Shown here one piece after another: positions 3,985 to 52,764 of a stretch of 54,992 nt of DNA. The notes under the pieces are model-generated. The model searched no databases, had not been told where the DNA came from, and worked only from the letters and a program-made list of their open reading frames with translations. A program made the translations under genes and the position numbers. Each line of letters opens with the position of its first letter. The stretch's first letter is position 1. This DNA is from Dehalococcoidia bacterium (GTDB lineage: Bacteria > Chloroflexota > Dehalococcoidia > UBA2979): positions 371 to 55,362 of the forward strand of contig JBJHDC010000003.1 in the NCBI GenBank assembly GCA_050486345.1, given 5' to 3'.

Positions 3985-4062
3985 GTAGCGATCGGCTAGG
4001 ACTGACGGCATCGGTTGGTGGTCACGTCACGCATCGAGGCCACGCGCAGTTGGGAGGCTCCG

Positions 4063-5523
4063 ATGACGAGCGATGCGGGAATCGCCAGTGAGATCGTCAC
4101 CTGGGACGCGCTCGAACTCTCTCGTGCGATTCGCGAGCGGCAGGTCTCGTGCATCGAGGTCATGGAGGCGTTCCTCGATCAGATCGCACTACACAACGGC
4201 ACCCATAACGCCATCGTCTCGCTGCGCGATCGCACGGAGCTGCTGGCAGAGGCTGCCGAGCGCGACCGCGATCTCGATCGTGGGGAGTATCGAGGGTGGA
4301 TGCACGGGTTCCCGCAGGCCCCCAAGGACCTGACCAGCACGGCGGGCATCAGGACCACCATGGGCTCGCGACTCTTCGCGGACCATGTCCCCGCCGAAGA
4401 CTCGATCCTCGTCGAGCGACTTCGTCGGGCAGGCTCGGTGCTGATTGGTAAGACCAACACGCCGGAGTTCGGGCTGGGGTCGCACACGTATAACGATGTC
4501 TTCGGAGTGACGCGAAACGCCCACGCGCCGGAGCGGACCGCCGGCGGGAGCAGTGGCGGCGCCGCGGTGGCGCTGGCGCTGCGCATGCTGCCCGTCGCCG
4601 ACGGCAGCGACGCGATGGGATCGCTCCGCAACCCCGCCGGCTACAACAACGTCCTCGGCTTCCGCCCCTCGTGGGGCCGCGTACCAGCAGGGCCCGCGGC
4701 AGACGTCTTCTACCAGCAGCTCAGTACAGAGGGCCCCATGGCGCGCAGCGTCGCAGACCTCGCGATGCTGCTCTCCACTCTCGCCGGGTATGACGACCGC
4801 GCCCCGCTCTCCAACACCCAGCCGTCCGATATCTTCGAGCGCCCGCTCGCCACGAACGTCCGCGGGCGACGCATCGCGTGGCTCGGTGACCTCGACGGCT
4901 ATCTCCCGATTGAGCCGGAGGTGATGGCACTCTGTCGCTCCGCGCTCGGAGCGATCGAGGACCTCGGCTGTGTCGTTGAGGAGGTCCTACTCGAAGTCCC
5001 CCTCGAGGGGATGTGGAGCGCCTGGACCACGCTCCGATCGTTGCTCCAGGCCGGGCGGTATCAGGAGCACTACGCCGATGCCGGCCGCCGGGCTCTGCTC
5101 AAGCCGGAGATCATCTGGGAGGTGGAGCGCGGGATGGCGCTCAGTGGGCTCGACTTCCACCAGGCCGCCCTCGATCGCAGCGCCTGGTACATGGCCGTTC
5201 GCGCGCTGTTCCAGCGATACGACTACTTCGCCCTCCCGTCCGCGCAGCTGCTGCCGTTCCCCGCCGAACTGGACTGGCCCCACGAGGTGGCGGGGCGGCC
5301 GATGGATACATACCACCGGTGGATGGAGGTGGTCGTCCCCGCCTCGCTCGCCGGTCTCCCGGCGATCAGCGTGCCCGCCGGATTCTCCGAGGACGGCCGC
5401 CCGATCGGCCTGCAACTCGTCGGCGCACCCAAGGATGATCTTTCCGTACTCGAGCTCGCCGCCGCGTATGAGTCGGCGACAGCGTGGGTGAGCCGCCGAC
5501 TCCCACCCGCGCTGACCGGTTGA
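4063..5523 (+). CDS. amidase (amidase-signature family)
   Basis: AS motifs are present: KD (APKDLTS), GGSSGGAAVALA and GSDAMGSLRNPAG. GGGAGG lies 6 nt upstream of ATG 4063. The ORF track starts at 4015. Confidence 0.9.
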   Translation: MTSDAGIASEIVTWDALELSRAIRERQVSCIEVMEAFLDQIALHNGTHNAIVSLRDRTELLAEAAERDRDLDRGEYRGWMHGFPQAPKDLTSTAGIRTTMGSRLFADHVPAEDSILVERLRRAGSVLIGKTNTPEFGLGSHTYNDVFGVTRNAHAPERTAGGSSGGAAVALALRMLPVADGSDAMGSLRNPAGYNNVLGFRPSWGRVPAGPAADVFYQQLSTEGPMARSVADLAMLLSTLAGYDDRAPLSNTQPSDIFERPLATNVRGRRIAWLGDLDGYLPIEPEVMALCRSALGAIEDLGCVVEEVLLEVPLEGMWSAWTTLRSLLQAGRYQEHYADAGRRALLKPEIIWEVERGMALSGLDFHQAALDRSAWYMAVRALFQRYDYFALPSAQLLPFPAELDWPHEVAGRPMDTYHRWMEVVVPASLAGLPAISVPAGFSEDGRPIGLQLVGAPKDDLSVLELAAAYESATAWVSRRLPPALTG

Positions 5524-5676: not shown

Positions 5677-6504
5677 ATGCCACAGACCAGCGGATATCCA
5701 CACCCCGAGCTACTCGAAACGACCGAGTGGCTCGCCGAACATCTCGATGACGCCGACCTCGTACTGCTCGATGCCCGGCGGCCCGAGGAGTATGCGGAAG
5801 GCCATATCCCGGGTGCACTCAACCTAGCGAATCCCGTCTTCAAGGCCGCCGGCTCCCTGGAGACCGGCTCCCCCGCGGAGTTCGCAGAGGTCGTCGGAGC
5901 GCTCGGCATCCGCCCGACGGATACCGTCATCTGCTACGACGCCGGCGGTCCGAGCGCGGCACGGCTCTGGTGGGCCTTCACCCGCTTCGGCCACGAGCAG
6001 ACGCGCTACCTGCATGGCGGGCTCACCAAGTGGGCGAGCGAGGGCCGCCCCCTCGAAACCGCCGCGGTGACGCGGACCCCGGTGGGCTACCAGCTCGGAC
6101 CGCAGCGCGAGGAGGTCGCCTGCACGCTCCCCCAGGCCATCGACCGTCTCGACAGCGACGACGTGGTGTTCTGGGACACGCGCTCTGAGGACGAGTTCAC
6201 TGGTGCCCGCGCGATGAACAACCCGGAGGACCGCGTCGGGCACATCCCGGGTGCGATCCACCTCGAATGGAGCGAGCTCGCCGACCCCGCGACGGGAATG
6301 TTCCGACCGGAAGAGGAGATGCGCGAGGTGCTCGCGGCGAAGGGCATCACGCCTGAGCGAGAGATCGTCACCTACTGACAGGGTGGCGGGCGTGCGTCGC
6401 ACGCCCTTCTGGCCCTGCGGCTCCTCGGCTACGGGCGGGTTCGCAACTTCGATAGCTCCTTCGGCGCCTGGGCGCAAGAGTCGGACGCATCGGTCGAGCG
6501 GTAG
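5677..6504 (+). CDS. two-domain rhodanese / thiosulfate-3-mercaptopyruvate sulfurtransferase with an in-frame TGA (6376-6378) at the catalytic Cys position; candidate selenoprotein or nonsense pseudogene
   Basis: The 233-aa ORF ends ...GITPEREIVTY-TGA. The same frame continues QGGGRASHALLALRLLGYGRVRNFDSSFGAWAQESDASVER-TAG (6502-6504). This is the rest of the rhodanese active-site loop (C-x-G-x-x-R-[ST]) and the C-terminal helix. The N-domain is the usual inactive rhodanese repeat (ICYDAGG). Confidence 0.6.
6379..6417 (+). promoter_or_regulatory. SECIS-like mRNA stem-loop immediately 3' of the in-frame TGA
   Basis: Upper helix GGGCGUG (6388-6394) pairs with CACGCCC (6400-6406) around the loop CGUCG. 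Lower helix CAGGG (6379-6383) pairs with CCCUG (6413-6417), separated by an internal loop. The apical loop lies 17-21 nt after the UGA and contains GU. Confidence 0.4.
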
Positions 6505-10847: not shown

Positions 10848-13800
10848 TCAGTCGACTGTCACTCGCACCTGCATCGACTCGATCGCCCACGTCAGGAATT
10901 CAAGGCTATACCCGCTCGCCGAGCAGTCCGCCCATGCCAGCTTGTTCTGGAACGACTCACCGATGGGGATGATCTGGAAGCACCCGTGCGATTCGAGATC
11001 GTAGTCGCCGACGTCCCACAGCCGATTCGACGTGTTGTTGAACACCGCCGTCCCATCAACGAGGTCATCGAACGGCTTGATCAGCCGGATACCCTTGCGA
11101 CCCATCTGGCCTACCGAACCCGGTCTGCCGGGGTCGACGTTTAGCGTGTTCCACACGCTCTGTGACACACCGATCGGGCTGTGCACGATCTGCTCCGGGT
11201 CCGTCACGATGTGCCACACTGCAATTCCGCTGTCCGAGATGTCCTCGTCGAAGTACGGCGAGCCCATCCCTTCCTTCCGGTACTCAAGGATGTAGAACTC
11301 CTCCCCGTGCGGGTTGTCGTAGCGCGGCAGGATGTAGACCGTGTCGCCCTTTGGCGTCGGTTGCACGTTGAGGATCTGATCCTCGTCGACGATCACCGGG
11401 GTCACCCAGCCGAGCATGAGCTTGTGCCACGGGTCCAGGTGCGTCGTCGTACGACGGTTGTCCGCGAGTAGCCCCATGTCGTCCTGTTCGGTCGCCCAGT
11501 CGATGTTCGGCATGTACTGGTCGTCCGCCAGCATCCACACGTGCATCAGTTCGTGCGCGATCGTTGTGAACTGGTGCTTCTCGATCGACTCATCGAGGCT
11601 CGTGTACACCTTCGCCACGTACCGTGGGAGCTCCACTCCGTCGCGCACCATCGGCGTCGAGTAGTTCGGGTTGTCGTCGGTGCACGTAGCTCCGTACAGG
11701 GTCGCCATCGAGCTGCCGTTGCCGTTCTTGCGTGGAATCACGACCACGATTGCGAGCTCCTGGGGGTCCACTCGGCCGTCGCCGTTCGCGTCGAACACGC
11801 TGAAGTCCACGTCCTGTCCGGCGAGCGATACGGCTTCGGCAATCAGCAGATCGCCACCATTGTCGAAACCGTATGTGCAGCCGCCGGGGTGGTCGTAATA
11901 GAGGCCGGAGCCGAACTGCGCGTCATACCAGCCGGTGACGCCCGGTCCCGGGCCCTTCGAGATCGTGAATCGTCCACCAGAGTTCGCGCTGAAGTACGAC
12001 TGTACGTTGTTCGGCTGGAACGTCGTGAATCCACCTCCCGCGCTGCCGTGGCCGAACATCGCGGCCTCCACCTTCCCCTTCGGCAGGTCCGCCTGCGTCT
12101 TGCAGTCGGGGTCAGGGGTTGGCGCGCGGCCCGCAATGATGCTGTCGCGGTCACCGCAGAGGCCCGGGTCCCACAGGATCGCCAGGACGTTGCGCGTGCC
12201 GATCATCGGCTCGATGTGCGGGATGTAGTCGCCCTCCCAGTTAACGTGGCCGCCACCGAACTGTGGCGCCTCCGCCAGGTCAGGCGTGAACGCGGTCTCG
12301 CTCAGCACGGTGAGCGTCCGGTCGCCCACGTAGGCATCGCCGGCGCCCGACGATCCCCACCAGATCTCTGCCTCATGCGTGCCGGGCGTGAGTCCCTTCG
12401 CGTCGAACGTGAACGTCTTCACCTGCGCGCCCATCGAGCCATCGGTGAGCTCCACCAGGTCATCCGTGTACAGCCATCCGTCGACGGCCAGCACCGCGAA
12501 CACCGGCGAACCGCTGATCGTGCCCACCTCCGCGCTCAGTCGCACCGCAACCTCGCCGTTGCCCGTCTCCGGAATCGTGAACTGTGCCTTCATGTTGGGC
12601 ATCGGCTCCAACCCGTTCGTCGTCGTGGAAACACTGGGGCCCGAGGCTGCCGCCGTGAACGGATTCGCTGCCCGAGGTACGGCGGAGAGCGCGATGGTGC
12701 GATCACCTAGCCCCGCCGTGCCGCCGGACTCGGTCATCCACTGGAACTTGACGAAGTGCCACCCGGTCGCAAGGTCGTTTGCCCCGAACGTCGCCGATCG
12801 CGACTGGGGTGAACCACCCTTGGCGAACACCATGTCGCCGGGCGACAGCGGTTGACCGTCCACCAACGCTCGGAGGTAGATGCGCTTGCCGTTGGTGACG
12901 TACGTCTCCGCGCTCATCGTTGCCGTCAGATCCTGCCCCTGCCCGACGTAGATGAAGCCCCACATCGATGGGATATCTGTCCAGCTCGTGCTCGTGGTCT
13001 CCACGTTCAGCCCGCTTGCTGGGGTCTGCACGTTCAGGGCGCCGTTCAACGATGGTGCGGCGTGGCCCATCTGTACCAGAAGAGAGGCGTTGCGCATGTA
13101 GCCCGTCGCGCGCTCATCCATCCGCCAGCGCATCTCCACGGTGTGGATGCCCCGCGACACCTCGGTTGAGAACACGAACGACCGCACGCCGGCGTACTCG
13201 GTGACCGCGAATACGACGTCGCCCGGGTCGACCGGCTTCCCATCGACCACCGCCTGCAGGAACATGCGGCGGTTCGCCCCCGCCAGGTCGTCTTCGACGT
13301 ACGCTTCCGCGGAGAAGTGAATCGCGACATTCGTCCGATCCCGCGGTGCGACGAACGAGGCCGTCATCTGGCGGCCGGCCGGCGCCTCACGCGAGCCCCG
13401 CCAGATCACATCACCCTTGATGTTCACGAAGTTCTGCGAACGCGTCGTGAGCCACCCGTCGCCCGCACAGGCGCTTGATCCTGACTCGTGGCAGCGAGGT
13501 GTCCCCAGGGCATCCTCTACCCGAATCCCGAACCCCTCGAACGGCGCCGGGCGTTCTGCCGCCAGGTCGCCCAGGCGGTCAAAGTGCGAGCGGACGCGCT
13601 CGATGTCGCGCTGGTCAGGTGTTCGCCGTTCCCGGACTCGCTGCACCGCATTGGCCAGCGCCTCGGCTTCGCGAGCGAGTTCCGGGTCGTTCCGAAGCCA
13701 CTCGACCTCGAAATCTGCCAGCAGGTCATTCGCGGCCGCAAGGATGACGTGATCCTCCACCGCATCAAGGTGACTCCCCCGTTCGGGGCCCTGTCTCGGT

Positions 13801-13880
13801 TCCTGCGCCTGAGTGGTCAGAACGACTGCGAACGACGCCAGCAACACACTTGCGACGATCGTGAATGTACGGTGGAACAT
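10848..13880 (-). CDS. secreted multidomain protein with three tandem beta-rich repeats and a C-terminal M6 (immune inhibitor A-like) Zn-metalloprotease domain
   Basis: The signal peptide MFHRTFTIVASVLLASFAVVLTTQAQ starts at ATG 13880, with GGAGAG upstream. HELMH lies at 11541-11555 and is followed by ADDQY. The segment FDANGDGRVDPQELAIVVVIP is typical of the M6 domain. Confidence 0.8.
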   Translation of the reverse strand: MFHRTFTIVASVLLASFAVVLTTQAQEPRQGPERGSHLDAVEDHVILAAANDLLADFEVEWLRNDPELAREAEALANAVQRVRERRTPDQRDIERVRSHFDRLGDLAAERPAPFEGFGIRVEDALGTPRCHESGSSACAGDGWLTTRSQNFVNIKGDVIWRGSREAPAGRQMTASFVAPRDRTNVAIHFSAEAYVEDDLAGANRRMFLQAVVDGKPVDPGDVVFAVTEYAGVRSFVFSTEVSRGIHTVEMRWRMDERATGYMRNASLLVQMGHAAPSLNGALNVQTPASGLNVETTSTSWTDIPSMWGFIYVGQGQDLTATMSAETYVTNGKRIYLRALVDGQPLSPGDMVFAKGGSPQSRSATFGANDLATGWHFVKFQWMTESGGTAGLGDRTIALSAVPRAANPFTAAASGPSVSTTTNGLEPMPNMKAQFTIPETGNGEVAVRLSAEVGTISGSPVFAVLAVDGWLYTDDLVELTDGSMGAQVKTFTFDAKGLTPGTHEAEIWWGSSGAGDAYVGDRTLTVLSETAFTPDLAEAPQFGGGHVNWEGDYIPHIEPMIGTRNVLAILWDPGLCGDRDSIIAGRAPTPDPDCKTQADLPKGKVEAAMFGHGSAGGGFTTFQPNNVQSYFSANSGGRFTISKGPGPGVTGWYDAQFGSGLYYDHPGGCTYGFDNGGDLLIAEAVSLAGQDVDFSVFDANGDGRVDPQELAIVVVIPRKNGNGSSMATLYGATCTDDNPNYSTPMVRDGVELPRYVAKVYTSLDESIEKHQFTTIAHELMHVWMLADDQYMPNIDWATEQDDMGLLADNRRTTTHLDPWHKLMLGWVTPVIVDEDQILNVQPTPKGDTVYILPRYDNPHGEEFYILEYRKEGMGSPYFDEDISDSGIAVWHIVTDPEQIVHSPIGVSQSVWNTLNVDPGRPGSVGQMGRKGIRLIKPFDDLVDGTAVFNNTSNRLWDVGDYDLESHGCFQIIPIGESFQNKLAWADCSASGYSLEFLTWAIESMQVRVTVD
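12303..13451 (-). repeat. three tandem intragenic repeats of about 115-130 aa within the protease gene
   Basis: Three units share the pattern (M/L)TA..SAE.YV....(R/K)..L.A.VDG.P..PGD.VFA......F.F....L..G.H.V...W......G.(G)DR(T/S)L.V. The units begin MTASFVAP..., LTATMSAETYV... and MKAQFTIPETG.... Confidence 0.7.
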
Positions 13881-14033
13881 GGCTCTCTCCTCGTGAATAC
13901 GCGGTATCCCGCTACAGGAGAGACGAACGTCTGCCGGTTTTCTTACAGACATGCTCCATGCGTCCGGCGGCACGAGGAAACGACCGTGTTCGCGGCGAGG
14001 AGCCGCCGCGAAGCCTCTCCTTCGAGCAGAGCG

Positions 14034-15822: not shown

Positions 15823-17046
15823 ATGAGGCACAGTACGGATCGCATCCTCGTCTCGCACGCGGGCAACCTGCCCCGTCCCGATTCGCTCAATGAGCTGATC
15901 GACGGCGGACGCAACACGAGTTCGGCCGACCAGGCCGAGTACCACCGCCGCCTGCCCGAAGCGGTGAAGCACATCGTGGACCGTCAGATCGAGTACGGGA
16001 TCGATGTCGTCAACGACGGTGAGTACGTGAAGGCAGGAAGCTACGGCGGATACATCAACTCCCGCATCGCCGGCTTCGAGACGCGCCCCGTCGAGGGTGT
16101 CGACCCCTCTCAGACCCCCGGTACTGGTGCTCGCGAGCGCAACGACTTCCCTGGGACGTACCAGACGCACCTGTGGTACTCGGGGTCGGGTGGGCCGATT
16201 CGTCCCGGGTTCCTCGTTGACGGTGTGCGAACGGGTGCGGCTGCCGCCGCCGACCAGGCGAAGAACCAGAAGGTCGCCGTCGGGCCGATCACGTACACCG
16301 GCCACGACGCGATCCAGGCGGACATCGCCAACCTCAAGACGGCACTGGAGGGCACCGACGCCGAGGGCTACATCGCCTCGATCGGCCCGCTGAGCGTCGG
16401 CGCGCGCGCGCTCAACGAGCACTACCCAAACGATGATGACGTCCTCTTCGCCACCGCCGAGGCGCTGGGCGAAGAGTGGAAGGCGATCGCCGACGCCGGT
16501 CTCATCGTCCAGGTGGACGAACCGCAGCTCGCCACGAGCTACGAGTTCTACCCCGACTGGACCGTGGAAGAGACGCGGAAGTACCTAGAGCGCGCGATCG
16601 AGGCCATCAACCACGGCTTGCGCGACGTGCCCCGCGAGAACGTCCGCCTCCACTTCTGCTGGGGGAGCGGGCACCGTCCGCACACCACGGACCTTGAGCT
16701 CAAGCACTTTGCCGACATCATGGCCCGCGCGAAGGCGCAGATGATTTCCTTCGAGGCGGCCAACGTGCGCCACTCACACGAGTGGGACGTGTGGAAGGAC
16801 GTCCGGCTGGAGCCGGACACGATCCTCATGCCCGGCGTCCTCAGCCACGCCACGGACCTGGTGGAGCACCCGGAGCTGATCGCGGAGCGCCTCGAGCAGT
16901 ACGCCAGCGTCGTGGGGCGCGAGAACGTGCAGACGGGCACCGACTGCGGCATCGGCTCTCGAGTCGGACACGAAGAGGTCGTCTGGGCCAAGCTACAGGC
17001 GATGGCCGAAGGCGCGCGCATCGCCAGCGAGCGACTCTGGCGGTAA
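15823..17046 (+). CDS. cobalamin-independent methionine synthase C-terminal-like (Meth_synt_2 / MetE-like) Zn alkyltransferase family protein
   Basis: N-terminus RILVSHAGNLPRPDSL. Putative Zn ligands are retained: H-x-C (LHFCWG), E (SFEAANV) and C (GTDCGIG). It is a paralogue of 39925-41103. Confidence 0.85.
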   Translation: MRHSTDRILVSHAGNLPRPDSLNELIDGGRNTSSADQAEYHRRLPEAVKHIVDRQIEYGIDVVNDGEYVKAGSYGGYINSRIAGFETRPVEGVDPSQTPGTGARERNDFPGTYQTHLWYSGSGGPIRPGFLVDGVRTGAAAAADQAKNQKVAVGPITYTGHDAIQADIANLKTALEGTDAEGYIASIGPLSVGARALNEHYPNDDDVLFATAEALGEEWKAIADAGLIVQVDEPQLATSYEFYPDWTVEETRKYLERAIEAINHGLRDVPRENVRLHFCWGSGHRPHTTDLELKHFADIMARAKAQMISFEAANVRHSHEWDVWKDVRLEPDTILMPGVLSHATDLVEHPELIAERLEQYASVVGRENVQTGTDCGIGSRVGHEEVVWAKLQAMAEGARIASERLWR

Positions 17047-17677: not shown

Positions 17678-19213
17678 TCACTCCTGGTGCAACGCCTCGG
17701 CCGGGCGCACGCGCGATGCCTGGTAGGCCGGGAGGAATGTCGTGAGTAGTGACGCCCCGTATGCCACACCAATGATGATCAGGATGGTCGCCCACGGCAC
17801 CTAGTAGGTGACCCCTTCGAACTCCTCTGCAATGGCATCGACGACATAGAGCGAGAGACTGCTGCCGAGGAGCGTGCCCAGCAGAATCCCGAGCAGCGCC
17901 ACGAATGATGACTCGATCATGAACGAGGCCTGCACCATCTCGCGCTGGAATCCGAGCGCGCGCATCACGCCGATCTCCTGGCGCCGCTCAACCACCGACC
18001 GTGCGGCGATCACACCCAGCGCCGCGATGCCGACGACCAACACGAGGGCAACAAAGCCGGTGAGCAGGCTGTCCAGCATCACGTTCGCCGCGGCGATATC
18101 TCGAATCTCCTCCTCGAGCACTGTGACCTGCAGACCGTGTTCGACGAACGCTAGCCGGAGCGCACTGGCGGCCTGATCGGCATTCGCACCCTCGACGAGC
18201 GTGATCATGTGCATGAGCGGAGGTCATGGCTCAGTTCGTAGAGCCCAGAGCGTCTCTGAGGAGGTCATAACAGCACCTGCGTAGAAGGCGAAGGACTCGA
18301 ACACGCCGATGACCCGCAACTCACTGATCTCGCCTGTGATCGGATCCCCGACCTCCAGGGTCACCTCAGGGAGTACCTCGTCCTCGAGCACGAAGCCCTC
18401 GAAGAGGAACGGTGGCTCAAAGCCCCCCACCGAGAACGATGTGCGCGCGGGGACCAGCATGGCGCCCACGACGACCGTCCTGGGCTCACCCCGTAGCGCC
18501 TGCCAGACCTCGTCAGCCGACCCGTACTCAGGCGCACGCATGGAGAAGCCGTAGGTGACAGATTCTGTGAACCCGGTGTCCGCGCCCTGCAGGATGAAGT
18601 CGACGAAGGGCTGGTCTGTCCCACCGGCTCGTGCCTCAACCGCTGCCGGCGCGATGCTGCCAACGGCGCCGAACCCCAGCGTGCTGAGTTCTGGTGAGTC
18701 TGCGATCGCAGCTTCAAGGTCGCGGATGGGGTTGGAAGCACTCACGGTCGTGCGGATGTCAAAGCCACCAGAGAGGCGCTCGGTATCGTCGAACACGGAA
18801 CCGATAGCAGTGAGGATGAACGACATGACAACCAGCGTGAACACCACGAGCGAGAACATCGCGAGGGTCATGCCCGTTCGGAAGCGATTCCGCATCGGGT
18901 ACGACAGCGCCGTGCGGAGCAATGGCGGCAGACTCTTCACCCGTCCGAGGGTCGCGATGAGCCCGGTGAGTAGCAGATCCGAGTTGTACATCACCGCCCA
19001 GACGGCGCCGACCACGATCATGATCCCCGAGAGGAAGAACATCTCGATGCCCATCTCGGAGTCAGGGAGTCCGGGGAGCAGCGCCGAAAGCCATGACTCC
19101 GGTAGCAGCCACCAGGCGACCAGGCCATGGCCCGCGACGGTGTAGGCCAAGCGGTCAGGAATCCCAAACCAACGGGTGAGCAGCGGGACTCCGATGATGA
19201 GCAGGGAGACGCC
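17678..19213 (-). pseudogene. FtsX/MacB-type ABC transporter permease, N-terminally truncated, with internal in-frame stop codons
   Basis: One continuous frame reads ...SSETLWALRTEP-TGA(18224-18226)-PPLMHMITLVEGAN...RRQEIGVMRALGFQREMV...EEFEGVTY-TAG(17801-17803)-VPWATILIIIGVAYGASLLTTFLPAYQASRVRPAEALHQE-TGA(17678-17680). The FtsX-domain consensus runs across both stops. Upstream of 19213 there is no first FtsX half. Confidence 0.8.
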
Positions 19214-19527
19214 TCATCTCCACCGGGACGCAGGCGAGCACATGGGTGCTCGCGGTGCGCAGTCGCTGGGTGCTTCGACCTCACTCATCGCACCCGCTGA
19301 GCCGCGCGTGCTCACGACTCCGCGATTCATGGGACTTGCTTACCCGCAGCGCCACCCGGCGGTCTCGGGGCCGCGGCCATCGCGAAACACGGGGACCAAG
19401 GCCCCTCCCGGGTGGGACGTAACGCACGTTGCGAAACCACTAGCGCACCTTCACGCTGGTCGCCATGGTCGATGGGAAGTGCTGAATCCTCAGCAAACCA
19501 GTGGACATTCGATCAGAAGAGGCCGGG

Positions 19528-20499
19528 ATGCCACCAGTACCGACTGCCGTTGTCGCCCTCGGAGGCAATGCGCTCCTCCGCCGTGGAGAACCGCTTGAGG
19601 CCGCCACGCAGGGACGGGCGGCGCGCGAGGCAGCGCAGGTGCTTGCACAAGCATCGATGCACCACCGGCTCATCGTTACCCACGGGAACGGGCCCCAGGT
19701 GGGGCTCCTCGCGCTGATGAACGATGCCTACACCGAGACCGAGCCCTACCCGCTCGACGTGCTCGGTTCCGAAACCGTGGGACAGATCGGCTATGTCCTG
19801 GAGATGCAGCTCGACAACTTCATTGACCACCAGGACACCGTGGCCGTGATCACGCGAGTGGTTGTCGATGACCGTGACCCCGCTTTCAAGGCACCGACCA
19901 AGTTCATCGGCCCCGTCTACACCGAAGCCGCAGCGCACGCACTCGCGGAACAGCGTGGATGGACCGTGCGGCAGGACGGGGAGCACTGGCGCCGCGTCGT
20001 CCCTTCGCCGGAGCCGCAGCGCATCGTGCAACTCGGCGCGATCCGCTCGCTCGTGGACGCGGGATTCCTCGTGGTCTGCGCCGGCGGTGGCGGCGTCCCC
20101 GTCATCGAGGATGCCGATGGCCACCGGGGCGTCGAGGCCGTGATCGACAAGGACTACACCGCGGCGCTACTCGCCGCTGAGTTGGACGTCGATGTGCTGG
20201 TGCTCGCGACCGACGTTGACGCCGTGTACGCGGACTTCGGGACGCCCCGGCAGCGCGCCATTGTGCGCGCGACGCCGGCAGGGCTGCGTTCTGGCGAGTA
20301 TCCGCCCGGATCGATGGGACCCAAGGTCGAGGCCGTCTGCCGCTTCGTGGCACGAACCGGCGGACGGGCAGCAATCGGAAGCCTCGAGCAACTCTCGGGC
20401 TTGTTGGATGGAACCTCCGGCACACAGGTGCTGGCGGATGGTGAACCAGTCGTGTACGGAGCCCCTGGGGGCTCCGAGAATGTGGAGACTGATCGATGA
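19528..20499 (+). CDS. arcC: carbamate kinase
   Basis: N-terminus VVALGGNALLRRGE and the segments THGNGPQVG and CAGGGGVPV are present. GAAGAGG lies upstream of ATG 19528. There is an ATGA overlap with the next gene. Confidence 0.9.
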   Translation: MPPVPTAVVALGGNALLRRGEPLEAATQGRAAREAAQVLAQASMHHRLIVTHGNGPQVGLLALMNDAYTETEPYPLDVLGSETVGQIGYVLEMQLDNFIDHQDTVAVITRVVVDDRDPAFKAPTKFIGPVYTEAAAHALAEQRGWTVRQDGEHWRRVVPSPEPQRIVQLGAIRSLVDAGFLVVCAGGGGVPVIEDADGHRGVEAVIDKDYTAALLAAELDVDVLVLATDVDAVYADFGTPRQRAIVRATPAGLRSGEYPPGSMGPKVEAVCRFVARTGGRAAIGSLEQLSGLLDGTSGTQVLADGEPVVYGAPGGSENVETDR

Positions 20500-22070
20500 C
20501 CACCCCACCAGACACACCACCGGACGAAGCCCCGACCATTCAGAATCCCACCCCTAGGCAGGTATGGTTCCCGACCGCCTTCACTGTGCTGGCCGTGATC
20601 CTGGTCGTCGTTTGGGTCGCCTCATTCTTCATCCCGTCCGGGGTATACGAGATCGACCCCGAGACCGGTGGCCCGATTCCCGGGAGCTACCAGGAACTGC
20701 CCTCATGCGACAACGCAGCCGATGGCGAGAGCTGTGTCGACAAGTCATTCATGGCGCAGTTCTCCCGGCTCTGGAACGCACCGCCGCTCGGGCTCTACGG
20801 CGTTGAGGGCGCGGACGGCCAGGTGGGCCAGTGGGAGGAGGGGTTCCTCTACGGCGCTGCGCAGATCTTCCTCTTCGTCCTCGCGGTCGGCGCGTTCATC
20901 ACCGTCGCGATGAGGTCAGGGGCAATTCAGACCGGTATCGGCCGGCTGTCGATGCGTTTCAGCGGCAGCGGTCCGTTGATGATCATCGTGCTCATGCTCA
21001 TCTTCGCGCTCGGTGGCACCACCTACGGGATGTGGGAGGAGACGCTGGGCTTCTTCCCGCTATTGGTGCCGCTGGCGTTGGCGCTCGGCTATGACCGCAT
21101 CGTTGCGGTCGGGGTCATCTTCTTCGGGGCGGGCACCGGTGTCCTCGCCTCCACCGTGAACCCCTTCGCCACCGGCGTCGCATCTGATGCCGCCGGGATC
21201 GGCGTGGGTGATGGGATCGTGCTGCGTGTCCTGCTCTGGATCGTGCTCGTGGCCGTCGCGATCGGCTACGTGCTCTGGTACGCCCGACGCGTGAAGGCGG
21301 ACCCATCGAAGTCCATTGTCGGCATCTCGGCGGAGGACGCACGGGAAGCGCGTGGACTCGTTACGGACGTGCCAGCCCTCACTGGTCGGCACAAGGCGAT
21401 CCTCGCGATCTTCTTCATGGCGTTTGCGGTGATGATCTACGGCTTCATCCCCTGGGATGACGTGATGCTGAACGTCTTTGACGGATCCTGGCCGTTCTGG
21501 ACGTTTGCAGACTTCTACTTCACCGAGGCGTCGATGCTCTTCATCGTCGCAGCGGTCGCCATCGGCATCATCGCGGGCCTCGGGGAGGCGGGCACGGTCG
21601 ACACCATCGTCCGGGGTGCTGGTGAGTTCATCGGCGCGGCACTCATCATCGTCTTTGCGCGCGGGATCACCGTGATCATGAAGAACACTGGCATCACCGA
21701 CACCATCCTCAACTGGGGGGAAGACGCGGTGTCGGGAACCTCAGCGGGAACATTCGGCGTACTGGCACTCCTCGTAAACCTACCCCTCGCGTTCCTGGTG
21801 CCATCCTCCTCCGGGCATGCCGCCCTGGTGATGCCGATCCTGGCGCCACTAGCCGACTTCGCATCAGTCGATCGCTCGATTGCGGTGACGGCGTTCCAAT
21901 CCGCGTCTGGCCTGATCAACTACATCACCCCCACTGCGGCCGTCGTGATGGGTGGCCTGGTGCTGGCGAAGGTCCGCTACGACCACTACCTCCGCTTCGC
22001 ACTGCCGTTCGTCGCCATCGTGCTGGTGATCACCGCCGTGTTCATCGCCATCGGCAGTGCGGCTGCTTAG
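20496..22070 (+). CDS. YfcC/DcuC-superfamily membrane carrier (putative arginine/ornithine or basic amino acid antiporter)
   Basis: 524-aa polytopic membrane ORF with a YfcC-like N-terminus ([28 protein letters not shown]). It is embedded between arcC and arcA. Confidence 0.8.
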
Positions 22071-22089
22071 GGCTCCCTGGAGGAACCAC

Positions 22090-23313
22090 ATGCCATTCCA
22101 CGTCGATTCCGAGGTCGGAACACTCCGGAAGGTGATCGTGCACCGCCCGGGGCTGGAGCACCTCCGCCTCACACCGTCGAACGCCGAGGAGCTGCTGTTC
22201 GACGATGTCATCTGGGTCAAGCGCGCGAAGGAGGAACACGATGCCTTCTGCGAGGTCATGCGGGACCGCGGCGTCGAGGTGTTCTACGCGGAGGAACTGC
22301 TGACGGACGTCCTGGGTATTCCCGAGGCTCGAGACTGGGTCCTCGACCGGGTGCTGGACGAGCGCGATGTCGGCATCTACCTGGCGCGGTCGGCGGGCGA
22401 GTGGGGGCGCTCCGTATCCCCGGTCGAGGTCGCCGACTTCCTGATCGGCGGGATCATCAAGTCCGACATCCCGGATGGTGAGGGGCTGCTCTACGAAGCG
22501 AGCGGCCCCACGGACATGCTGCTGCCGCCGCTGCCGAACTTCATCTTCCAGCGTGATCCCAGTTGCTGGATCTACGACGGCGTCACCCTCAATCCCATGA
22601 CCAAGCGGGCCCGTCGCCCGGAGACGATCTTCATGCAGGCCATCTATCGATGGCACCCCATGTTCGTGGAGGAAGGGGGCGTGCGGGTCTGGCTGGGCGA
22701 CGTGGAACAGGACTGGAGCCGAACCACCATCGAAGGCGGCGACGTGATGCCCATCGGCAACGGGGCAGTCATGGTCGGCATGGGTGAGCGAACCTCGCCC
22801 CAGGCCGTGACCCAGCTGGCGCGCGCACTCTTCCAGGCCGGCTCCGCGCGCCTCGTGCTCGCGGTGCTTCTCCCGCGGATCCGCTCGTACATGCACCTCG
22901 ATACCGTGATGACCATGGTCGACCGCGACGCCGTCACCGTATTCCCGGAGGTGGTGGACGGCGCGCGCGTCTGGGCGGTGCGACCCGGCGATGACCCCGA
23001 GTTGCCGGTCGTCGAGCGGTTCCAGGGCGGGGTCATCGATGCTCTCAAGCACGCGCTCGATCTGCCCGAGGTCCGCGTCATCTCCACGGGAACCGATCCG
23101 TTTAGCAGTGAGCGCGAACAGTGGGATGACGGCAACAACGTGGTCTGCCTGGAGCCCGGGGTCGTTGTCGCGTACGACCGCAACGTCGACACGAACACGC
23201 GCCTGCGCAAAGCAGGCATCGAGGTCATCACGATCTCCGGCTCCGAACTCGGACGCGGGCGTGGAGGCTCTCACTGCCTCACCTGTCCCATCGAGCGCGA
23301 CGCCGCCTACTGA
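22090..23313 (+). CDS. arcA: arginine deiminase
   Basis: N-terminus [21 protein letters not shown]. The C-terminal catalytic motif is [21 protein letters not shown] lies upstream of ATG 22090. Confidence 0.95.
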
Positions 23314-23364
23314 CACTCGCCCGACCAGCACCCGCCCGACCACCACCCGCCCGAAAGGACCCCC

Positions 23365-24369
23365 ATGTTCAATCTGCGCAACCGCCACTTCCTCAAGGAG
23401 ATCGACTTCACGAAGCGTGAGCTCGAGTACCTGCTCACGCTCTCCGAGGCGCTCAAGATCGCGAAGCTCGCCGGCACCGAGGTGCCCCGCCTCCAACGCC
23501 GGGAGATCGCGCTGATCTTCGAGAAGACCTCCACCCGCACACGCTCAGCGTTCGAGGTCGCGGCGTATGACATGGGCGCGCACGTCACGTACATGGACCC
23601 CTCCGGCTCCCAGATGGGGCACAAGGAGTCGATCGCGGACACCGCGCGTGTCCTCGGTCGCATGTACGACGCCATCGAGTATCGCGGCGCGGCCCACGCG
23701 TCCGTCGAGGAGCTCGCGCACTACGCGGGCGTCCCCGTCTACAACGGGCTCACCGACGACTGGCATCCCACCCAGATGCTGGCCGACTTCCTCACGATGT
23801 ACGAGGCCAGCCGCAAGCCGTACGACGACATCGCCTACTGCTACATGGGCGACGCCCGCAGCAACATGGGCCGGTCGCTCCTGGTGATGGGCGCGATCAT
23901 GGGCTCGGACGTGCGTATCTGCGCGCCGCGCGACCTCTGGCCCCCCGAGGATGTGCAGCAGATTGCCCGGGACCGAGCCGCGGAGAGCGGCGCGCGCATC
24001 ATGTTGACCGAAGACCTCGAAGAGGCACTTCCCGGCGTGGACTTCGTGCACACGGATGTCTGGGTCTCGATGGGCGAATCGAAGGAGGTGTGGGATGAGC
24101 GCGTCCGCCTGCTGACGCCCTACCAGGTCAATGCCTCCGTCATGGAGCGGACCGGGAACCCGCGCGTGAAGTTCATGCACCCGCTGCCTGCATTCCACGA
24201 TAAGAACACCGTCCTCGGGCGCGAGATCATCGAACACACGGGCCTCGAATCAGGCCTCGAGGTGACCGACGAGGTCTTCGAGTCCGCACGCAGCATCGTC
24301 TTTGATCAGGCAGAGAACCGCCTGCACACGATCAAGGCTGTACTCGTCGCGACCCTCGGCGGGGTGTGA
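23365..24369 (+). CDS. arcB: catabolic-type ornithine carbamoyltransferase (HPLP variant of the HCLP motif)
   Basis: Motifs [13 protein letters not shown] and DVWVSMGE are present. From memory it resembles Pseudomonas ArcB along its whole length (...[11 protein letters not shown]..., ...[16 protein letters not shown]). Confidence 0.9.
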
Positions 24370-25079: not shown

Positions 25080-25430
25080 ATGGCTGTAATCTCCATTTCC
25101 GGGCTCGCGAAGGAATTCGGATCCACCCGTGCGCTGGACGGCTTCGACCTCAACGTGGAGTCCGGCGAGGTACACGGTTTCCTCGGACCGAATGGCGCCG
25201 GTAAGTCCACTACCATCCGCATCCTCCTCGGCCTGTTGCGCCGCGATGCGGGTGAGGTGAGCCTGCTCGATGGGGACCCCTGGGACGATGCCGTTCAGTT
25301 ACACCGCCGGCTCGCGTACGTGCCGGACGATGTGCGGCTGTGGCCGAACCTCACTGGTGGTGAGGTGATCGACCTCTTCGGCATGTTGCGAGGTGACATG
25401 GACCTCGATCGGCGCGCGGAGATGATCGAG
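25080..25430 (+). pseudogene. ABC transporter ATP-binding protein (ABC-2/DrrA-like), 5' fragment truncated by an IS remnant
   Basis: Walker [10 protein letters not shown] and the typical N-terminus [31 protein letters not shown] are present. Homology stops at about ...[10 protein letters not shown]. The signature motif, Walker B and downstream regions are absent. Confidence 0.8.
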
Positions 25431-25450
25431 AGCACCAGGTCGGCCTGGGC

Positions 25451-25973
25451 CACGTCGACATCAAGAAGCTGTGGCGCATCCCTGAGGGCGGCGGCTGGCG
25501 TCTGCACGGGCGTGAGCAGGCCCGGACGCAGGCAGCGGGTCGGGAACGCCTACATCCACTCCGCGGTGGATAATCACTCCCGCCTCGCCCACAGCGAGGT
25601 GCTCGGGGACGAGCGACCCGAGACCGCCCTTGCCTTCTGGCCCCGTGCGCTGGACTGGTTCGCCCAGCGCGGCGCACCGGTGCAGCGGGCGCTCACCGAC
25701 AACGGGTCCGCGTACCGCAGCCACCTCTTCAACCAGCTCTGCGTGGCGCGGGACGTGAAGCGCCGCTTCGCCTGCCCCTACCGCCCGCAGACCAGCGCCA
25801 AGGTCGAACGCGTCAACCGCACGCTGCTCGAGGAGTGGGCCAGGCGTGCATCCACCACTTGAACGGGCAAGCACGTCCTGTTCCACGAGTGCAATCATCG
25901 CCGCGGCCACGCCGCACTCGGTGGATTGCCCTCGGTAGGCCGAGTTACCAATGTGCCACCTCAGTACAGCTAG
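25451..25973 (+). mobile_element. degraded IS481-family transposase fragment (DDE/integrase core, N-terminally truncated, one frameshift and one in-frame TGA)
   Basis: Frame 2 reads [21 protein letters not shown]. It shifts near 25530 to [22 protein letters not shown]...[10 protein letters not shown]...[26 protein letters not shown] at 25860-25862 is then followed in the same frame by [35 protein letters not shown]. Confidence 0.8.
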
Positions 25974-38367: not shown

Positions 38368-39594
38368 TCACGCTCGCCTGAGCTGCGACGCGACCAGCAG
38401 GCTGACCGCGCAGGTCAGGATGAGAATCCCGCCCGCTAGCCCGAAGGCGAACCCGACGGTCGTGGCATCTGCGATCGCACCGAGGGTCAGCGGGCCGACG
38501 ATCCAGCCGAATCCGATGGCAAGATTCCATGCCCCCAGCACGCGGCCGCGCAGGTGCTCGTCGACGGCTTGTTGTAGCAAGATCCATTCGATCGCATCGA
38601 TCAGCGCCGTGCAGCAGCCGATGGCGGCAGCAGCCGTGAGCGACACCACGTACCAGGGCGCAGAGCCGATCACGATCATCAGCGCCCCGAACGTTCCGAA
38701 GATGACAAGAAAGGTCAGTCCGAGCCTCATCCGATCCGCGTAGGCGGCGAGGAACAGGAGCCCGAGCACTGCTCCCACCGCCGTCGCCGCGTTCAGCCCT
38801 CCGAGTCCAGACGGCCCGACATCGACGACCCGATCCGCGATCGCGGGGAGGAGCGCGAAGAATGAGTAGCCAAAGATCTCGACGATCACCATGAGACCGA
38901 GCAAGACCGACACCATGGGCACTCTGCCCACCGTGATCAGGCCGCCCACTGTATCCGACAGCAAGGACGCACTGGCTCTCCGTGGAAGCGTGCGAGGCTC
39001 TTCGACGCGGCGGTAGAGCACCGCGGCGAACAGGCACGCCACCCCTGCAGTTGCGAGGGCCGCTGATGCTCCCAGCGTGCTGATCAACACGCCTCCGCCC
39101 AACGCACCCACGGCCGCAATTCCGCGTTGGCCGGTGGAGATCAGGCTGATCGCTCGCGCTCGATGCCGGACACCACCCAGATCGCCCGCCAGCGTGTGCA
39201 GGGACGCAAAGTGGAGTGACTGAGCCACGCCGGTGCCAGCCAGCAGTGCGAACACCACGATGAGTGATGTCCCACCCAGCACGACGAACGCCGCCAGGAG
39301 GATCGTGATGAACGCCCGCAGGCCCGCCGTGATGGACAGCACTCCAGGTCGAGGCGAGCGGTCCGATATGGCACCGGCGATCGGACCGACGAACAGCCCC
39401 GGGCCCATCTGCACCGACACTGCAGCGGACGTTAGGAATGCCGAGTTCGTCATCTCAAAAATGAACCACCCGGCAGCGACACGCTCCATCCACTGCGCGC
39501 CGGCCTGGAGTACGGCGCTCGACCAGAGCGCACCGAAGCCACGCAGCGCGAAGACCTCACCGATCTGTCGAGCAGGAAGCGCGCCGACAGCCAT
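38368..39594 (-). CDS. MFS transporter (EntS/MFS_3-like), paralogue of 7957-9174
   Basis: The start is MAVGALPARQIGEVFALRGFGALW at ATG 39594. The 899-aa track ORF (to 41067) is an antisense read-through of the MetE-like gene. Confidence 0.85.
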   Translation of the reverse strand: MAVGALPARQIGEVFALRGFGALWSSAVLQAGAQWMERVAAGWFIFEMTNSAFLTSAAVSVQMGPGLFVGPIAGAISDRSPRPGVLSITAGLRAFITILLAAFVVLGGTSLIVVFALLAGTGVAQSLHFASLHTLAGDLGGVRHRARAISLISTGQRGIAAVGALGGGVLISTLGASAALATAGVACLFAAVLYRRVEEPRTLPRRASASLLSDTVGGLITVGRVPMVSVLLGLMVIVEIFGYSFFALLPAIADRVVDVGPSGLGGLNAATAVGAVLGLLFLAAYADRMRLGLTFLVIFGTFGALMIVIGSAPWYVVSLTAAAAIGCCTALIDAIEWILLQQAVDEHLRGRVLGAWNLAIGFGWIVGPLTLGAIADATTVGFAFGLAGGILILTCAVSLLVASQLRRA

Positions 39595-39924
39595 GAATCC
39601 TCGCTTGCGGAGTTCTGATCCGTTCGTGAGGAACAAACGTAACCGCTCATGACGACGGCGATGTGACCGCTGGCTTTCGTCTTTCAATCCAGGAGATATA
39701 CGTTCTGTCTCACGTCCTGCGTTCGCGACGGTTGCCAAACCCGCCGAGCACTTGCCAGGACCGCGTACCTGCTGATAACCAGTGTCATCGTGTAACCGCG
39801 CGATCCTCGGCGGCTGTCCGAGCCGACCGAGAGACGCACGGTACGTTCGCACGATGCGCAGCCCCAGGTGACAGCGCACCGAAACAGCGACCCGGGACGA
39901 TGCAGGAACGAGGGAACGATTCAG

Positions 39925-41103
39925 ATGAAGCGAAGCGACGAGCGGATCCTGACCACGCATGCCGGGAGCCTGATCCGGCCTGACCTGTTGCTGGACTACG
40001 CAGTGAAGCGGGGCGACGGAGAGACGATCGACGAGAGCGCCTACGAAACGGATCTCTCCGCGGCGGTGTCCGAGGTTGTACGGCAGCAGGCCGAGGCCGG
40101 CGTGGACATCGTGGACGACGGGGAGTTCTCGAAGTCGAGCTGGGGCACCTACATCAATGAACGGGTAACCGGCTTCCAGCCCCAGGCGGGCCGCCCTCTG
40201 CCAATCAACTACCTCGGCCGCGATGTGGAGCGGTACCCGGGCTTCTTCGCAGACTCTCCCTGGGGTGGGGGTACCTCGAGGATGCCCCGTCAGGCGATGA
40301 GCGTTGACGTGTGCGTGGAGCCGATCACCTACATCGGCCACGACCGCCTCGCCCGCGACATCGAGAACATGAAACGCGCCGTGGAGGCTGCGCCACAGGT
40401 CGAAGAGGCGTTCCTCGCGGTGGTCGCTCCTGCCAGCGCCGCCTTTAATGCGTTCAACGAGTACTACGGGACCGAGGAAGAGTACGTCTACGCTCTCGCA
40501 GAGGCGCTGCGGGAAGAGTACCTGGCGATCACGAACGCCGGTCTGATCGTGCAGATCGACGACGCGGTGCTGGCGAACGTGTACGACCACATGATGCAGG
40601 AGGGCGGACGCGAACGGTTCGACAAGTGGGCATGGCTCCGCATTGAAGCGTTGAATCACGCGCTGCGGGATATCCCGGAAGATCGCGTCCGCTACCACCT
40701 CTGCTACGGCAGCTGGCACGCGCCGCACACTGCTGACGCTCCCTTCGAGGACATGATCGACCTGGTGCTGGCCGTGAAGGCGCAGGCGTATTCGATCGAA
40801 GCAGCCAATGTGCGCCACGAGCATGACTGGCGCGTGTGGGAGGACGTGAAGCTTCCGGAGGGGAAGATCCTCATCCCCGGCGTGGTCACGCACCACACCC
40901 TGAGCGTAGAGCATCCTCGACTCGTCGCGGACCGGCTGATCCGCTATGCGAACGTGGTCGGACGCGAGAACGTCATTGGCGGTACCGACTGCGGCTTCGC
41001 CCAGGGAATTGGTGTGGAGCGCGTCCACCCGGAGATCCAGTGGGCGAAGCTGGAGAGCCTCGCTCAAGGCGCGCGCCTTGCCAGCGCGGAACTCTGGGCA
41101 TAG
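39925..41103 (+). CDS. MetE C-terminal-like (Meth_synt_2) Zn alkyltransferase family protein, paralogue of 15823-17046
   Basis: MKRSDERILTTHAGSLIRPD starts at ATG 39925. Putative Zn ligands are YHLCYG, SIEAANV and GGTDCGF. Confidence 0.85.
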   Translation: MKRSDERILTTHAGSLIRPDLLLDYAVKRGDGETIDESAYETDLSAAVSEVVRQQAEAGVDIVDDGEFSKSSWGTYINERVTGFQPQAGRPLPINYLGRDVERYPGFFADSPWGGGTSRMPRQAMSVDVCVEPITYIGHDRLARDIENMKRAVEAAPQVEEAFLAVVAPASAAFNAFNEYYGTEEEYVYALAEALREEYLAITNAGLIVQIDDAVLANVYDHMMQEGGRERFDKWAWLRIEALNHALRDIPEDRVRYHLCYGSWHAPHTADAPFEDMIDLVLAVKAQAYSIEAANVRHEHDWRVWEDVKLPEGKILIPGVVTHHTLSVEHPRLVADRLIRYANVVGRENVIGGTDCGFAQGIGVERVHPEIQWAKLESLAQGARLASAELWA

Positions 41104-43087: not shown

Positions 43088-43133
43088 CCCCACGCGTCAT
43101 CAGCAATCCGCAGACACCTCAAGGAGTTTCACC

Positions 43134-44705: not shown

Positions 44706-44726
44706 GACATCAACCTCACACAGGAT

Positions 44727-44768
44727 GCGCGCCGTCGCTGCCCAACTCCTCCGGCGGCGACGGCGCGC
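44727..44768 (+). terminator. GC-rich hairpin after the plus-strand amidase pair
   Basis: GCGCGCCGTCGC (44727-44738) pairs with GCGACGGCGCGC (44757-44768), a 12-bp perfect stem, followed by TTCACGTTGT. Confidence 0.55.
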
Positions 44769-44895
44769 TTCACGTTGTCACGCTGGTCACGCACCCGTTC
44801 AACCCCGGCAGGAGCACGCCCCACCCGATTGGTTTCGTCCTGACGGATGATGATCGAGTGCCATTACCGCGGGCGCGTGTGGCGATGAATGAAAC

Positions 44896-44939
44896 AAACA
44901 GATAGCGGCCCCCGGTACTCCGGGGACCGCTATCTGTTT
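44896..44939. terminator. bidirectional terminator hairpin after the minus-strand amidase operon
   Basis: AAACAGATAGCGGCCCCCGG-tact-CCGGGGACCGCTATCTGTTT has 20-nt arms with one mismatch and A/T tracts on both sides. It lies 28 nt beyond the 44967 stop. Confidence 0.75.
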
Positions 44940-44966
44940 GCCGTCGGTTCGAGCTGCGAGCCCGAG

Positions 44967-49194: not shown

Positions 49195-49236
49195 TGGTAT
49201 CTCGATTCTGATCCGGCACCGGTAGTGCGTTCATAG

Positions 49237-50649: not shown

Positions 50650-50701
50650 TGCTGTCTCCTCTAGTCCTTGCCTGCGTCCGACCATGTCGACCGGAACGTC
50701 T

Positions 50702-52655: not shown

Positions 52656-52662
52656 CGGATGT

Positions 52663-52764
52663 AATCGATCGATTCGGGACGTGACCACGCGTATCCTCGC
52701 CTCCATTGAACTGTTTCGAGTGAACACAATCGAAACTAGAGGCGTCGCGTGATCGATCGGTCAC
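52663..52764. promoter_or_regulatory. cluster of palindromes upstream of the SBP gene; candidate operator sites
   Basis: Three elements: AATCGATCGATT (52663-52674, a perfect 12-bp palindrome); GTTTCGA-n10-TCGAAAC (52713-52736); and GTGATCGATCGGTCAC (52749-52764, a near-palindrome sharing the GATCGATCG core). Confidence 0.35.

Follow-up and report, generated by a model that had tools for sequence, protein, structure and literature searches.

A probable selenocysteine rhodanese sulfurtransferase gene with a predicted bacterial SECIS element in a Dehalococcoidia contig

We analyzed a stretch of 54,992 nucleotides (nt) from a Dehalococcoidia bacterium (contig JBJHDC010000003.1; the whole stretch is referred to below as the window), in which the frame of a two-domain rhodanese sulfurtransferase gene on the forward strand meets a TGA codon where the catalytic cysteine is expected. 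A reading of the letters made without database searches (the sequence-only reading) had proposed a candidate selenocysteine (Sec) sulfurtransferase at this place, with a hairpin directly behind the TGA serving as a selenocysteine insertion sequence (SECIS) element. The gene is flanked by an amidase and a VanY-type peptidase. It opens with an ATG at 5677 and reaches the in-frame TGA (6376-6378) after ...EREIVTY, and the frame then reads QGGGRASHALLALRLLGYGRVRNFDSSFGAWAQESDASVER to the TAG at 6502-6504. The coordinates of all parts of the gene and of the hairpin are collected in Table 1.

With the stop replaced by Cys, the 275-amino-acid (aa) product contained two stretches matching Pfam PF00581 (E = 8.5e-42), the best of which lay in the N-terminal domain (aa 15-121). 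The top NCBIfam match was PRK11493 (full-length 3-mercaptopyruvate sulfurtransferase) with 118 bits, under the 250-bit cutoff of that model. Alignments to four solved structures in PDB (1UAR, 1E0C, 3HZU and 1URH; E = 2e-39 to 6e-27) extended over nearly the whole length, with residues 6-266 placed on 1UAR, 19-274 on 1E0C and 2-267 on the SseA chain 3HZU. The TGA fell in the column of the catalytic Cys of the solved rhodaneses (e.g., 1UAR ...vvyCRiaerssH). The alignments to 1UAR and to Cys homologues thus bore out the proposal that a rhodanese open reading frame (ORF) is halted at its catalytic Cys column, and the 41 further rhodanese codons claimed for the same frame were also found. The Sec-related motif UxxG was present as U-Q-G-G in the window and as U-[QGH]-[GA]-G in family members.

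Homologous DNA was taken from the best 80 matches among species-representative genomes, using the protein with Cys substituted for the stop as the query. These were mostly metagenome-assembled genomes (MAGs) of Dehalococcoidia/Chloroflexota, the others being Binatia, Longimicrobiales, Acidobacteriota, Entotheonella and one deltaproteobacterium. A second scan, seeded with Cys forms, supplied 33 Cys and 12 additional Sec genes from metagenome loci. The codon at the catalytic column was TGA in 77/80 genomes and TGC in 3/80, and was never TAA or TAG. The 12 additional genes also carried TGA, and the rest of the analyzed homologues carried TGC or TGT. Cys stood opposite the TGA in the full-length homologues P0009, P0015, P0017, P0045 and others, and also at loci L003, L016 and L021. 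The closest relatives retrieved, L083 (87% identity) and L081/L082 (74%), kept the TGA together with the same upper helix of the hairpin, with nearby synonymous sites changed. The occupant of this column in orthologues had been named beforehand as a check on the selenoprotein proposal, and it turned out to be TGA in the great majority of genomes.

Past the TGA, the frame continued for approximately 40-47 rhodanese codons in 76 of the 77 TGA genes (93 codons in L077), and the downstream frame was kept in all 80 best genomes. Between the 41-codon tails of the window and L081, 20 codon changes were synonymous and 7 non-synonymous; the differences at codon positions 1, 2 and 3 numbered 8, 2 and 22, respectively. 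This substitution pattern is that of a translated sequence under purifying selection.

The sequence-only reading had set against the selenoprotein a TGC-to-TGA nonsense mutation, that is, a recently inactivated pseudogene whose downstream frame has not yet decayed. Such a mutation needs only a single C-to-A change, and gene damage is clear in at least one place in the window (25080-25862), where fragments of an ABC ATPase and of an integrase form a chimera. This explanation fails, however, on the recurrence of TGA at the same codon throughout the species genomes and the metagenome loci, the relatives at 87% and 74% identity included, with no TAA or TAG, and on the mostly synonymous change of a tail that is still selected. 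The conserved and covarying hairpin described below also contradicts it, and the TGA forms do not make up one recent clonal lineage, with protein identities falling to approximately 37-45%. We therefore consider a nonsense mutation exceedingly unlikely. A sequencing or assembly error might be suspected in what appears to be a metagenome-type contig, but the same codon was recovered in independent assemblies from many projects and technologies, which leaves this explanation with a negligible likelihood.

A reassigned genetic code was rejected, since 14 of the 36 genes predicted in the window end in an ordinary TGA stop, as do many orthologues at their true stop, the final stops of the orthologues being a mixture of TAG, TGA and TAA. 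As a separate observation, the closest full-length homologue (protein P0005; L084, 3402-4232; 56% identity) carried GAC (Asp) at the catalytic codon (TAT GAC CAT, against TAC TGA CAG in the window) and had no hairpin. This protein may be a derivative that has lost catalysis, or its sequence may reflect a one-base shift around a former TGA.

Public annotation treats the TGA as a stop. Many homologues with 42-87% identity were annotated as proteins of 231-241 aa that covered 83-85% of the query, and all 15 of the shortened homologues that were aligned ended right after the invariant Tyr233. Exactly this residue is also the last one in the database entry P0001 and in dozens of homologues. When 10 NCBI-sourced homologues were looked up by cluster, the sole entry returned was HJM89667.1, a shortened annotation of 237 aa. 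These gene calls, every one of which ends at the TGA, would agree with genuine termination, in which the functional product is either a 233-aa protein that lacks the active site or a protein split into two parts, and the hairpin serves as a terminator, an attenuator or part of a separate small ORF; a G+C-rich hairpin past a stop can also look like a terminator stem. However, at every locus the 41 codons are in frame with the upstream ORF and complete the rhodanese catalytic loop and domain, and they evolve as coding sequence. The hairpin is not followed by a T-run, directly past the TGA there is neither a start codon nor a ribosome-binding site for the tail, and the Cys forms do not carry the helix. 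Genuine termination is accordingly judged very unlikely.

RNAfold gave -29.9 kcal/mol for the 61 nt from 6370 to 6430 and -16.1 kcal/mol for the local hairpin. The fold reproduced the hairpin of the sequence-only reading, with each helix one pair longer; the pentaloop CGUCG of that reading is the present triloop with its closing C-G pair left open. The published model of bacterial SECIS elements (bSECIS) has a loop of 3-9 nt, a stem of 4-16 bp, a UGA-to-loop spacing of 16-37 nt and a minimum free energy of at most -7.5 kcal/mol, with a G among the first two loop positions and a typical loop N1-G-[G/U]-N-N2 in which N1 and N2 are paired (PMC13188914). The C-GUC-G loop, 8-bp stem, 17-nt spacing and local folding energy of the window hairpin lay within all four constraints. 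The 55-kb window contained about 22 distinct hairpins with perfect stems of 8 bp or longer and loops of 3-9 nt, and from this count the chance of one such hairpin lying 16-37 nt past a given codon is estimated at roughly 1%.

Conservation of the hairpin was measured on 80 genes with the TGA, whose sequences aligned without gaps over the region from 6 nt upstream of this codon to 53 nt downstream. Base pairs were exchanged for one another at several positions: alignment pair 21-35 was C-G in 51 genes, G-C in 24 and unpaired in 3, pair 20-36 was U-A in 37, G-C in 11 and C-G in 8, and pair 24-32 was U-A in 61, G-U in 6 and A-U in 4. The covariation score was 0.242 compared to 0.125 for column shuffles (0/500 reaching the observed value), and registers slid by 1-3 columns scored no more than 0.115. 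RNAalifold independently returned the same six-pair stem with a C-GGC-G loop. Synonymous resampling with each gene's own codon usage showed the real window sequence to be stabler than its recoded versions (P = 0.017 for the local hairpin; P = 0.03 for 48 nt), and 52% of loci reached P < 0.05.

The hairpin also followed the identity of the catalytic codon. All six core pairs were complete in 65% of Sec genes (n = 92) and in 0% of Cys genes (n = 33), and at least five core pairs were formed in 88% and 6%, respectively. The R-A-A-H residues after the catalytic position were encoded by CGT-GCG-GCG-CAC in 61/61 Sec genes with this peptide, whereas codon choice was mixed in the 9 Cys genes with R-A-A-H (Arg: CGC, CGA, CGG or CGT; Ala: GCG, GCC or GCA; His: CAC or CAT). 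Where Cys homologues had exactly the same QGGxRAAH peptide, they likewise used other codons, and the helix was not formed. This pattern is that of a selected RNA element tied to the UGA and not a consequence of the peptide alone. The alternative that the hairpin is a by-product of the G-R-A-S-H-A codons, which the sequence-only reading had named as fatal to its proposal, failed on both the covariation and the codon choice of the Cys forms.

In a neighbor-joining tree, Cys forms fell inside the Sec clade at least four times (L003, L085, L016/L021/L091 and L102/L105), and Fitch parsimony required at least six state changes. The nested Cys genes did not have the frozen CGT-GCG-GCG-CAC codons; for example, L085 read GGGCGCGCCGCCCACGGC versus GGGCGTGCGGCGCACGCC in its Sec neighbors L005/L006. 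The consensus helix was broken in a few Sec genes (L096-L098, L062, L008 and L025), in which the hairpin had instead moved a few nt 3' (within 66 nt from the TGA), with GUC loops in L096, L098 and L062 and four-nucleotide, G-first loops in L008 and L025. These shifted hairpins suggest turnover of the SECIS inside the family.

The predicted SECIS overlies the codons of the active-site loop (G-G-x-R-A-x-H-x), so that RNA pairing would freeze their synonymous sites. It would also couple the amino acids at +4 and +9 from the catalytic residue, which covaried as Ile(AUC)...Gly(GGN) in 58 genes, Ala(GCG)...Ala(GCN) in 15 and Gly(GGG)...Ala(GCC) in 9. Cys genes with Ile at +4 had Ala(GCC) at +9.

The conserved UGA, the selected downstream frame and the covarying, UGA-specific hairpin together support the sequence-only proposal, and 5677-6504 is very probably a gene for a selenocysteine rhodanese sulfurtransferase with a bacterial SECIS. 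By analogy with the established bacterial Sec pathway, from which the following steps are taken, the hairpin at 6379-6417, with its 8-bp G+C-rich upper stem and small G-first loop C-[GUC]-G, would act as the SECIS. Its apical part would bind the SelB-GTP-Sec-tRNASec complex and offer it to a ribosome paused on the UGA at 6376-6378. Sec would then be put in as residue 234 and the 41 further codons translated, ending at the TAG at 6502. As suggested by bacterial selenoproteins and rhodaneses, the transferred sulfane sulfur would be carried on selenium (Enz-Se-S-) rather than as a cysteine persulfide. Both Sec insertion in this organism and the chemistry of the enzyme are deduced in this way.

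A number of points weigh against this assignment. On the single sequence, the z-score of the hairpin versus dinucleotide shuffles was only -1.85, with 10/200 shuffles folding equally well, in a region with a G+C content of 65-68%; the single-sequence statistic is thus moderate, and it is the comparison among homologues that carries the weight of evidence. Because the Sec genes share ancestry, counts like 61/61 do not represent independent events. Rfam gave no family match in the window at the gathering score, and at E <= 10 the sole match in 6340-6460 was a chance 9.8-bit Acido-1; the missing match says nothing about function, as bacterial SECIS elements are diverse and are defined by structure. 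We know of no member of the family experimentally shown to contain selenium. Finally, selA, selB, selC and selD were not found in the 55-kb window by tRNA and Rfam scans and by Pfam scans of approximately 40 ORFs, the window containing no tRNA genes at all, and the Sec-decoding capacity of this organism is deduced from its relatives and the literature.

Relatives did supply part of this machinery. ARAGORN identified a tRNA-SeC(UCA) gene 4 kb from the orthologue in a Dehalococcoidia MAG (L032, 6626-6718, minus strand) and another 1.2 kb from the orthologue in a Binatia MAG (L057, 8734-8825, plus strand), both confirmed by Rfam RF01852 (73 bits versus a cutoff of 47). Neither selA nor selB was found beside these two tRNA genes. 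The neighbors in L032 and L057 were an MFS transporter, a CoA-transferase, an enoyl-CoA hydratase, a CmcJ-like oxidoreductase and an MJ0158-like pyridoxal phosphate (PLP) enzyme below cutoff (TIGR03576), the last lying 2.4 kb from the tRNA in L057. Dehalococcoidia are reported to be among the selenoprotein-richest bacteria, and MAGs with 46-49 selenoprotein genes each have been described from this class (PMC13326102).

These data bear on a further explanation, that the UGA is read through without Sec, either by near-cognate insertion of Trp or Cys promoted by the downstream structure or in a Sec gene stranded after loss of the Sec machinery. The missing machinery in the window would fit this explanation, and downstream structures can promote stop-codon read-through generally. 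On the other hand, the site is a catalytic Cys, a classic Sec/Cys pair, and the hairpin fits the SelB-type bSECIS model exactly, the small G-first loop included. The tRNA-Sec genes near two orthologues and the selenoprotein richness of Dehalococcoidia (PMC13326102) also speak for Sec, and the helix and tail are intact in the window and its two closest relatives despite many synonymous differences, which argues for ongoing use. Read-through without Sec is therefore regarded as improbable. The gene context gave no functional clue, as among ORF clusters within 5 kb on either side of 79 Sec loci no family was common to more than 14 loci and none was consistently adjacent.

Rhodanese selenoproteins have been predicted before. 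A rhodanese-related sulfurtransferase (COG2897; three sequences, with a SECIS figure) was among 15 new selenoprotein families from the Sargasso Sea in 2005 (PMC1088965), and Global Ocean Sampling (GOS) data in 2008 held 8 Sec versus 3,367 Cys sequences of a rhodanese-related sulfurtransferase (cd01449) (PMC2398784). In reviews from 2022 and 2026, rhodanese-like proteins carrying UxxG appear among the predicted selenoprotein families (PMC9312934, PMC13188914). AACY01016424 and MCY3690685.1 are published representatives. By domain architecture, the window gene is taken to be a further member of this known predicted family, rhodanese-related sulfurtransferase, in its COG2897/cd01449 form 4 and not the single-domain form 2. 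Both the window protein and the predicted family members are SseA/COG2897-like two-domain proteins with Sec at the catalytic Cys and a U-x-x-G motif, and both have a SECIS-like hairpin directly downstream with a G in a small apical loop. The published counts are tiny and marine, whereas the best 80 species genomes compared here had Sec in 77/80 and were mostly Dehalococcoidia and Binatia.

The Cys-containing two-domain rhodaneses (Thermus thermophilus 1UAR, Azotobacter vinelandii RhdA 1E0C, thiosulfate sulfurtransferase SseA 3HZU and Escherichia coli SseA 1URH) share fold and domain order with the window protein and also have, after the catalytic residue, a six-residue loop that ends in Arg and a small residue. 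The window protein differs by Se in place of S at the nucleophile, by a Gly-rich loop and by an RNA element in the region coding for the loop. The loop of RhdA, which we take to be C-Q-T-H-H-R-S, would make the window loop U-Q-G-G-G-R-A RhdA-like. Like the SelB-bound SECIS elements of E. coli fdhF and fdnG, the window hairpin is a stem-loop that follows the UGA immediately, within the ORF, with a small apical loop in which G is followed by U (or G). Its upper stem begins approximately 9-10 nt past the UGA; the minimal SECIS element of fdhF lies 11 nt downstream. The two differ in that there is no sequence similarity, the window loop is a triloop or pentaloop C-GUC-G, and the predicted hairpin has no evident bulged U matching U17 of fdhF.

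The Sec form was widespread and predominant in Dehalococcoidia and Binatia among the best 80 genomes. In public gene calls the protein ends at residue 233, without its active site (P0001; HJM89667.1 in a relative), so metabolic inference from such MAGs misses a functional sulfurtransferase together with a marker of selenium dependence. To our knowledge, the family, catalogued since 2005, seems never to have been studied biochemically. The covariation-supported SECIS consensus could serve as the starting point for an RNA or protein model used in automatic annotation, and the repeated Sec-to-Cys replacements with relaxed codons provide a natural experiment on the constraint that an RNA signal inside a gene places on an active-site sequence. 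Sec dominance in Dehalococcoidia/Binatia, the clean SECIS consensus and the RNA-driven coupling of residues may go somewhat beyond the existing catalogue entries, as refinements and not as a new kind of system. Current understanding is not overturned, and the main value lies in the correction of a systematic mis-annotation and in a supported SECIS alignment for an uncharacterised selenoenzyme family.

A joint reading of these results, which we offer tentatively and hold to be rather doubtful, is that the Sec form is ancestral and prevailing across a large uncultured clade of Dehalococcoidia, Binatia and neighboring phyla, with the SECIS dictating the residues at +4 and +9 (Gly...Ala, Ile...Gly or Ala...Ala). 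In its bolder version, the protein would be a selenium/sulfane-sulfur carrier for selenophosphate synthesis and not a generic detoxifying rhodanese.

Table 1. Coordinates of the predicted selenoprotein gene, its candidate SECIS element and the amidase block in the window.
Feature	Position	Strand	Description	Basis
Full predicted selenoprotein coding sequence (CDS)	5677..6504	+	275 codons, predicted Sec at residue 234, then TAG; two-domain rhodanese sulfurtransferase	Translation, Pfam, PDB alignments
First 233 codons	5677..6375	+	N-terminal non-catalytic rhodanese domain and most of the catalytic domain, up to invariant Tyr233	ORF list
UGA codon, predicted U234	6376..6378	+	Replaces catalytic Cys of loop U-Q-G-G-G-R-A	Orthologue codons, 1UAR alignment
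C-terminal 41 codons	6379..6501	+	Rest of active-site loop and conserved ...RNFD.S...W...ER rhodanese end; translated only with UGA recoding	
True stop TAG	6502..6504	+		Translation
Bacterial SECIS element, predicted, within CDS	6379..6417	+		Fold, covariation, synonymous resampling, Sec-versus-Cys comparison
Lower helix	6379-6384 pairs with 6412-6417	+		Fold
Upper helix	6388-6395 pairs with 6399-6406	+	8 bp; GGGCGUGC/GCACGCCC	
Apical loop GUC	6396-6398	+	17 nt after UGA; closed by C-G pair	
Amidase block	41513-43087, 42975-44705, 44967-46427, 46382-47791, 47788-49194, 49237-50685		PF01425	

Among the ORF pairs of the window joined by one in-frame stop, no selenoprotein candidate other than the rhodanese gene was found; the remaining pairs were adjacent or overlapping genes or non-coding frames. 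Pfam scans of the window ORFs identified transporters, seven amidases, an arginine deiminase cluster, a two-component system and a sigma factor. One of the seven amidase (PF01425) paralogues is located at 4015-5523 and six are contiguous within 41513-50685; the first two of this block overlap by 113 nt, and a family-5 solute-binding protein follows at 50979-52727. The arginine deiminase pathway cluster (19501-24369, plus strand) consists of an amino-acid (carbamate) kinase, a DcuC-type carrier, an arginine deiminase and an ornithine carbamoyltransferase.

Three ORFs on the minus strand (10848-13973, 52929-54647 and 18224-19150; 1041, 572 and 308 aa, respectively) had no Pfam match at E <= 1e-6. 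Base composition, computed for 10848-13973 and 18224-19150, was coding-like in both. The 260-aa ORF at 25080-25862 (plus strand) fuses a piece of an ABC-transporter ATPase (aa 19-115, profile positions 1-80 of 137) with an rve integrase core (aa 155-236). Its make-up resembles that of an insertion-sequence remnant or a gene chimera, and this ORF may be what the sequence-only reading meant by damaged genes elsewhere in the window. Two plus-strand paralogues of approximately 410 aa (15823-17046 and 39868-41103) matched only Meth_synt_2, the catalytic domain of cobalamin-independent methionine synthase. The second of these lies antisense to the upstream half of an 899-aa ORF (38368-41067), which is probably an over-extended MFS transporter gene.

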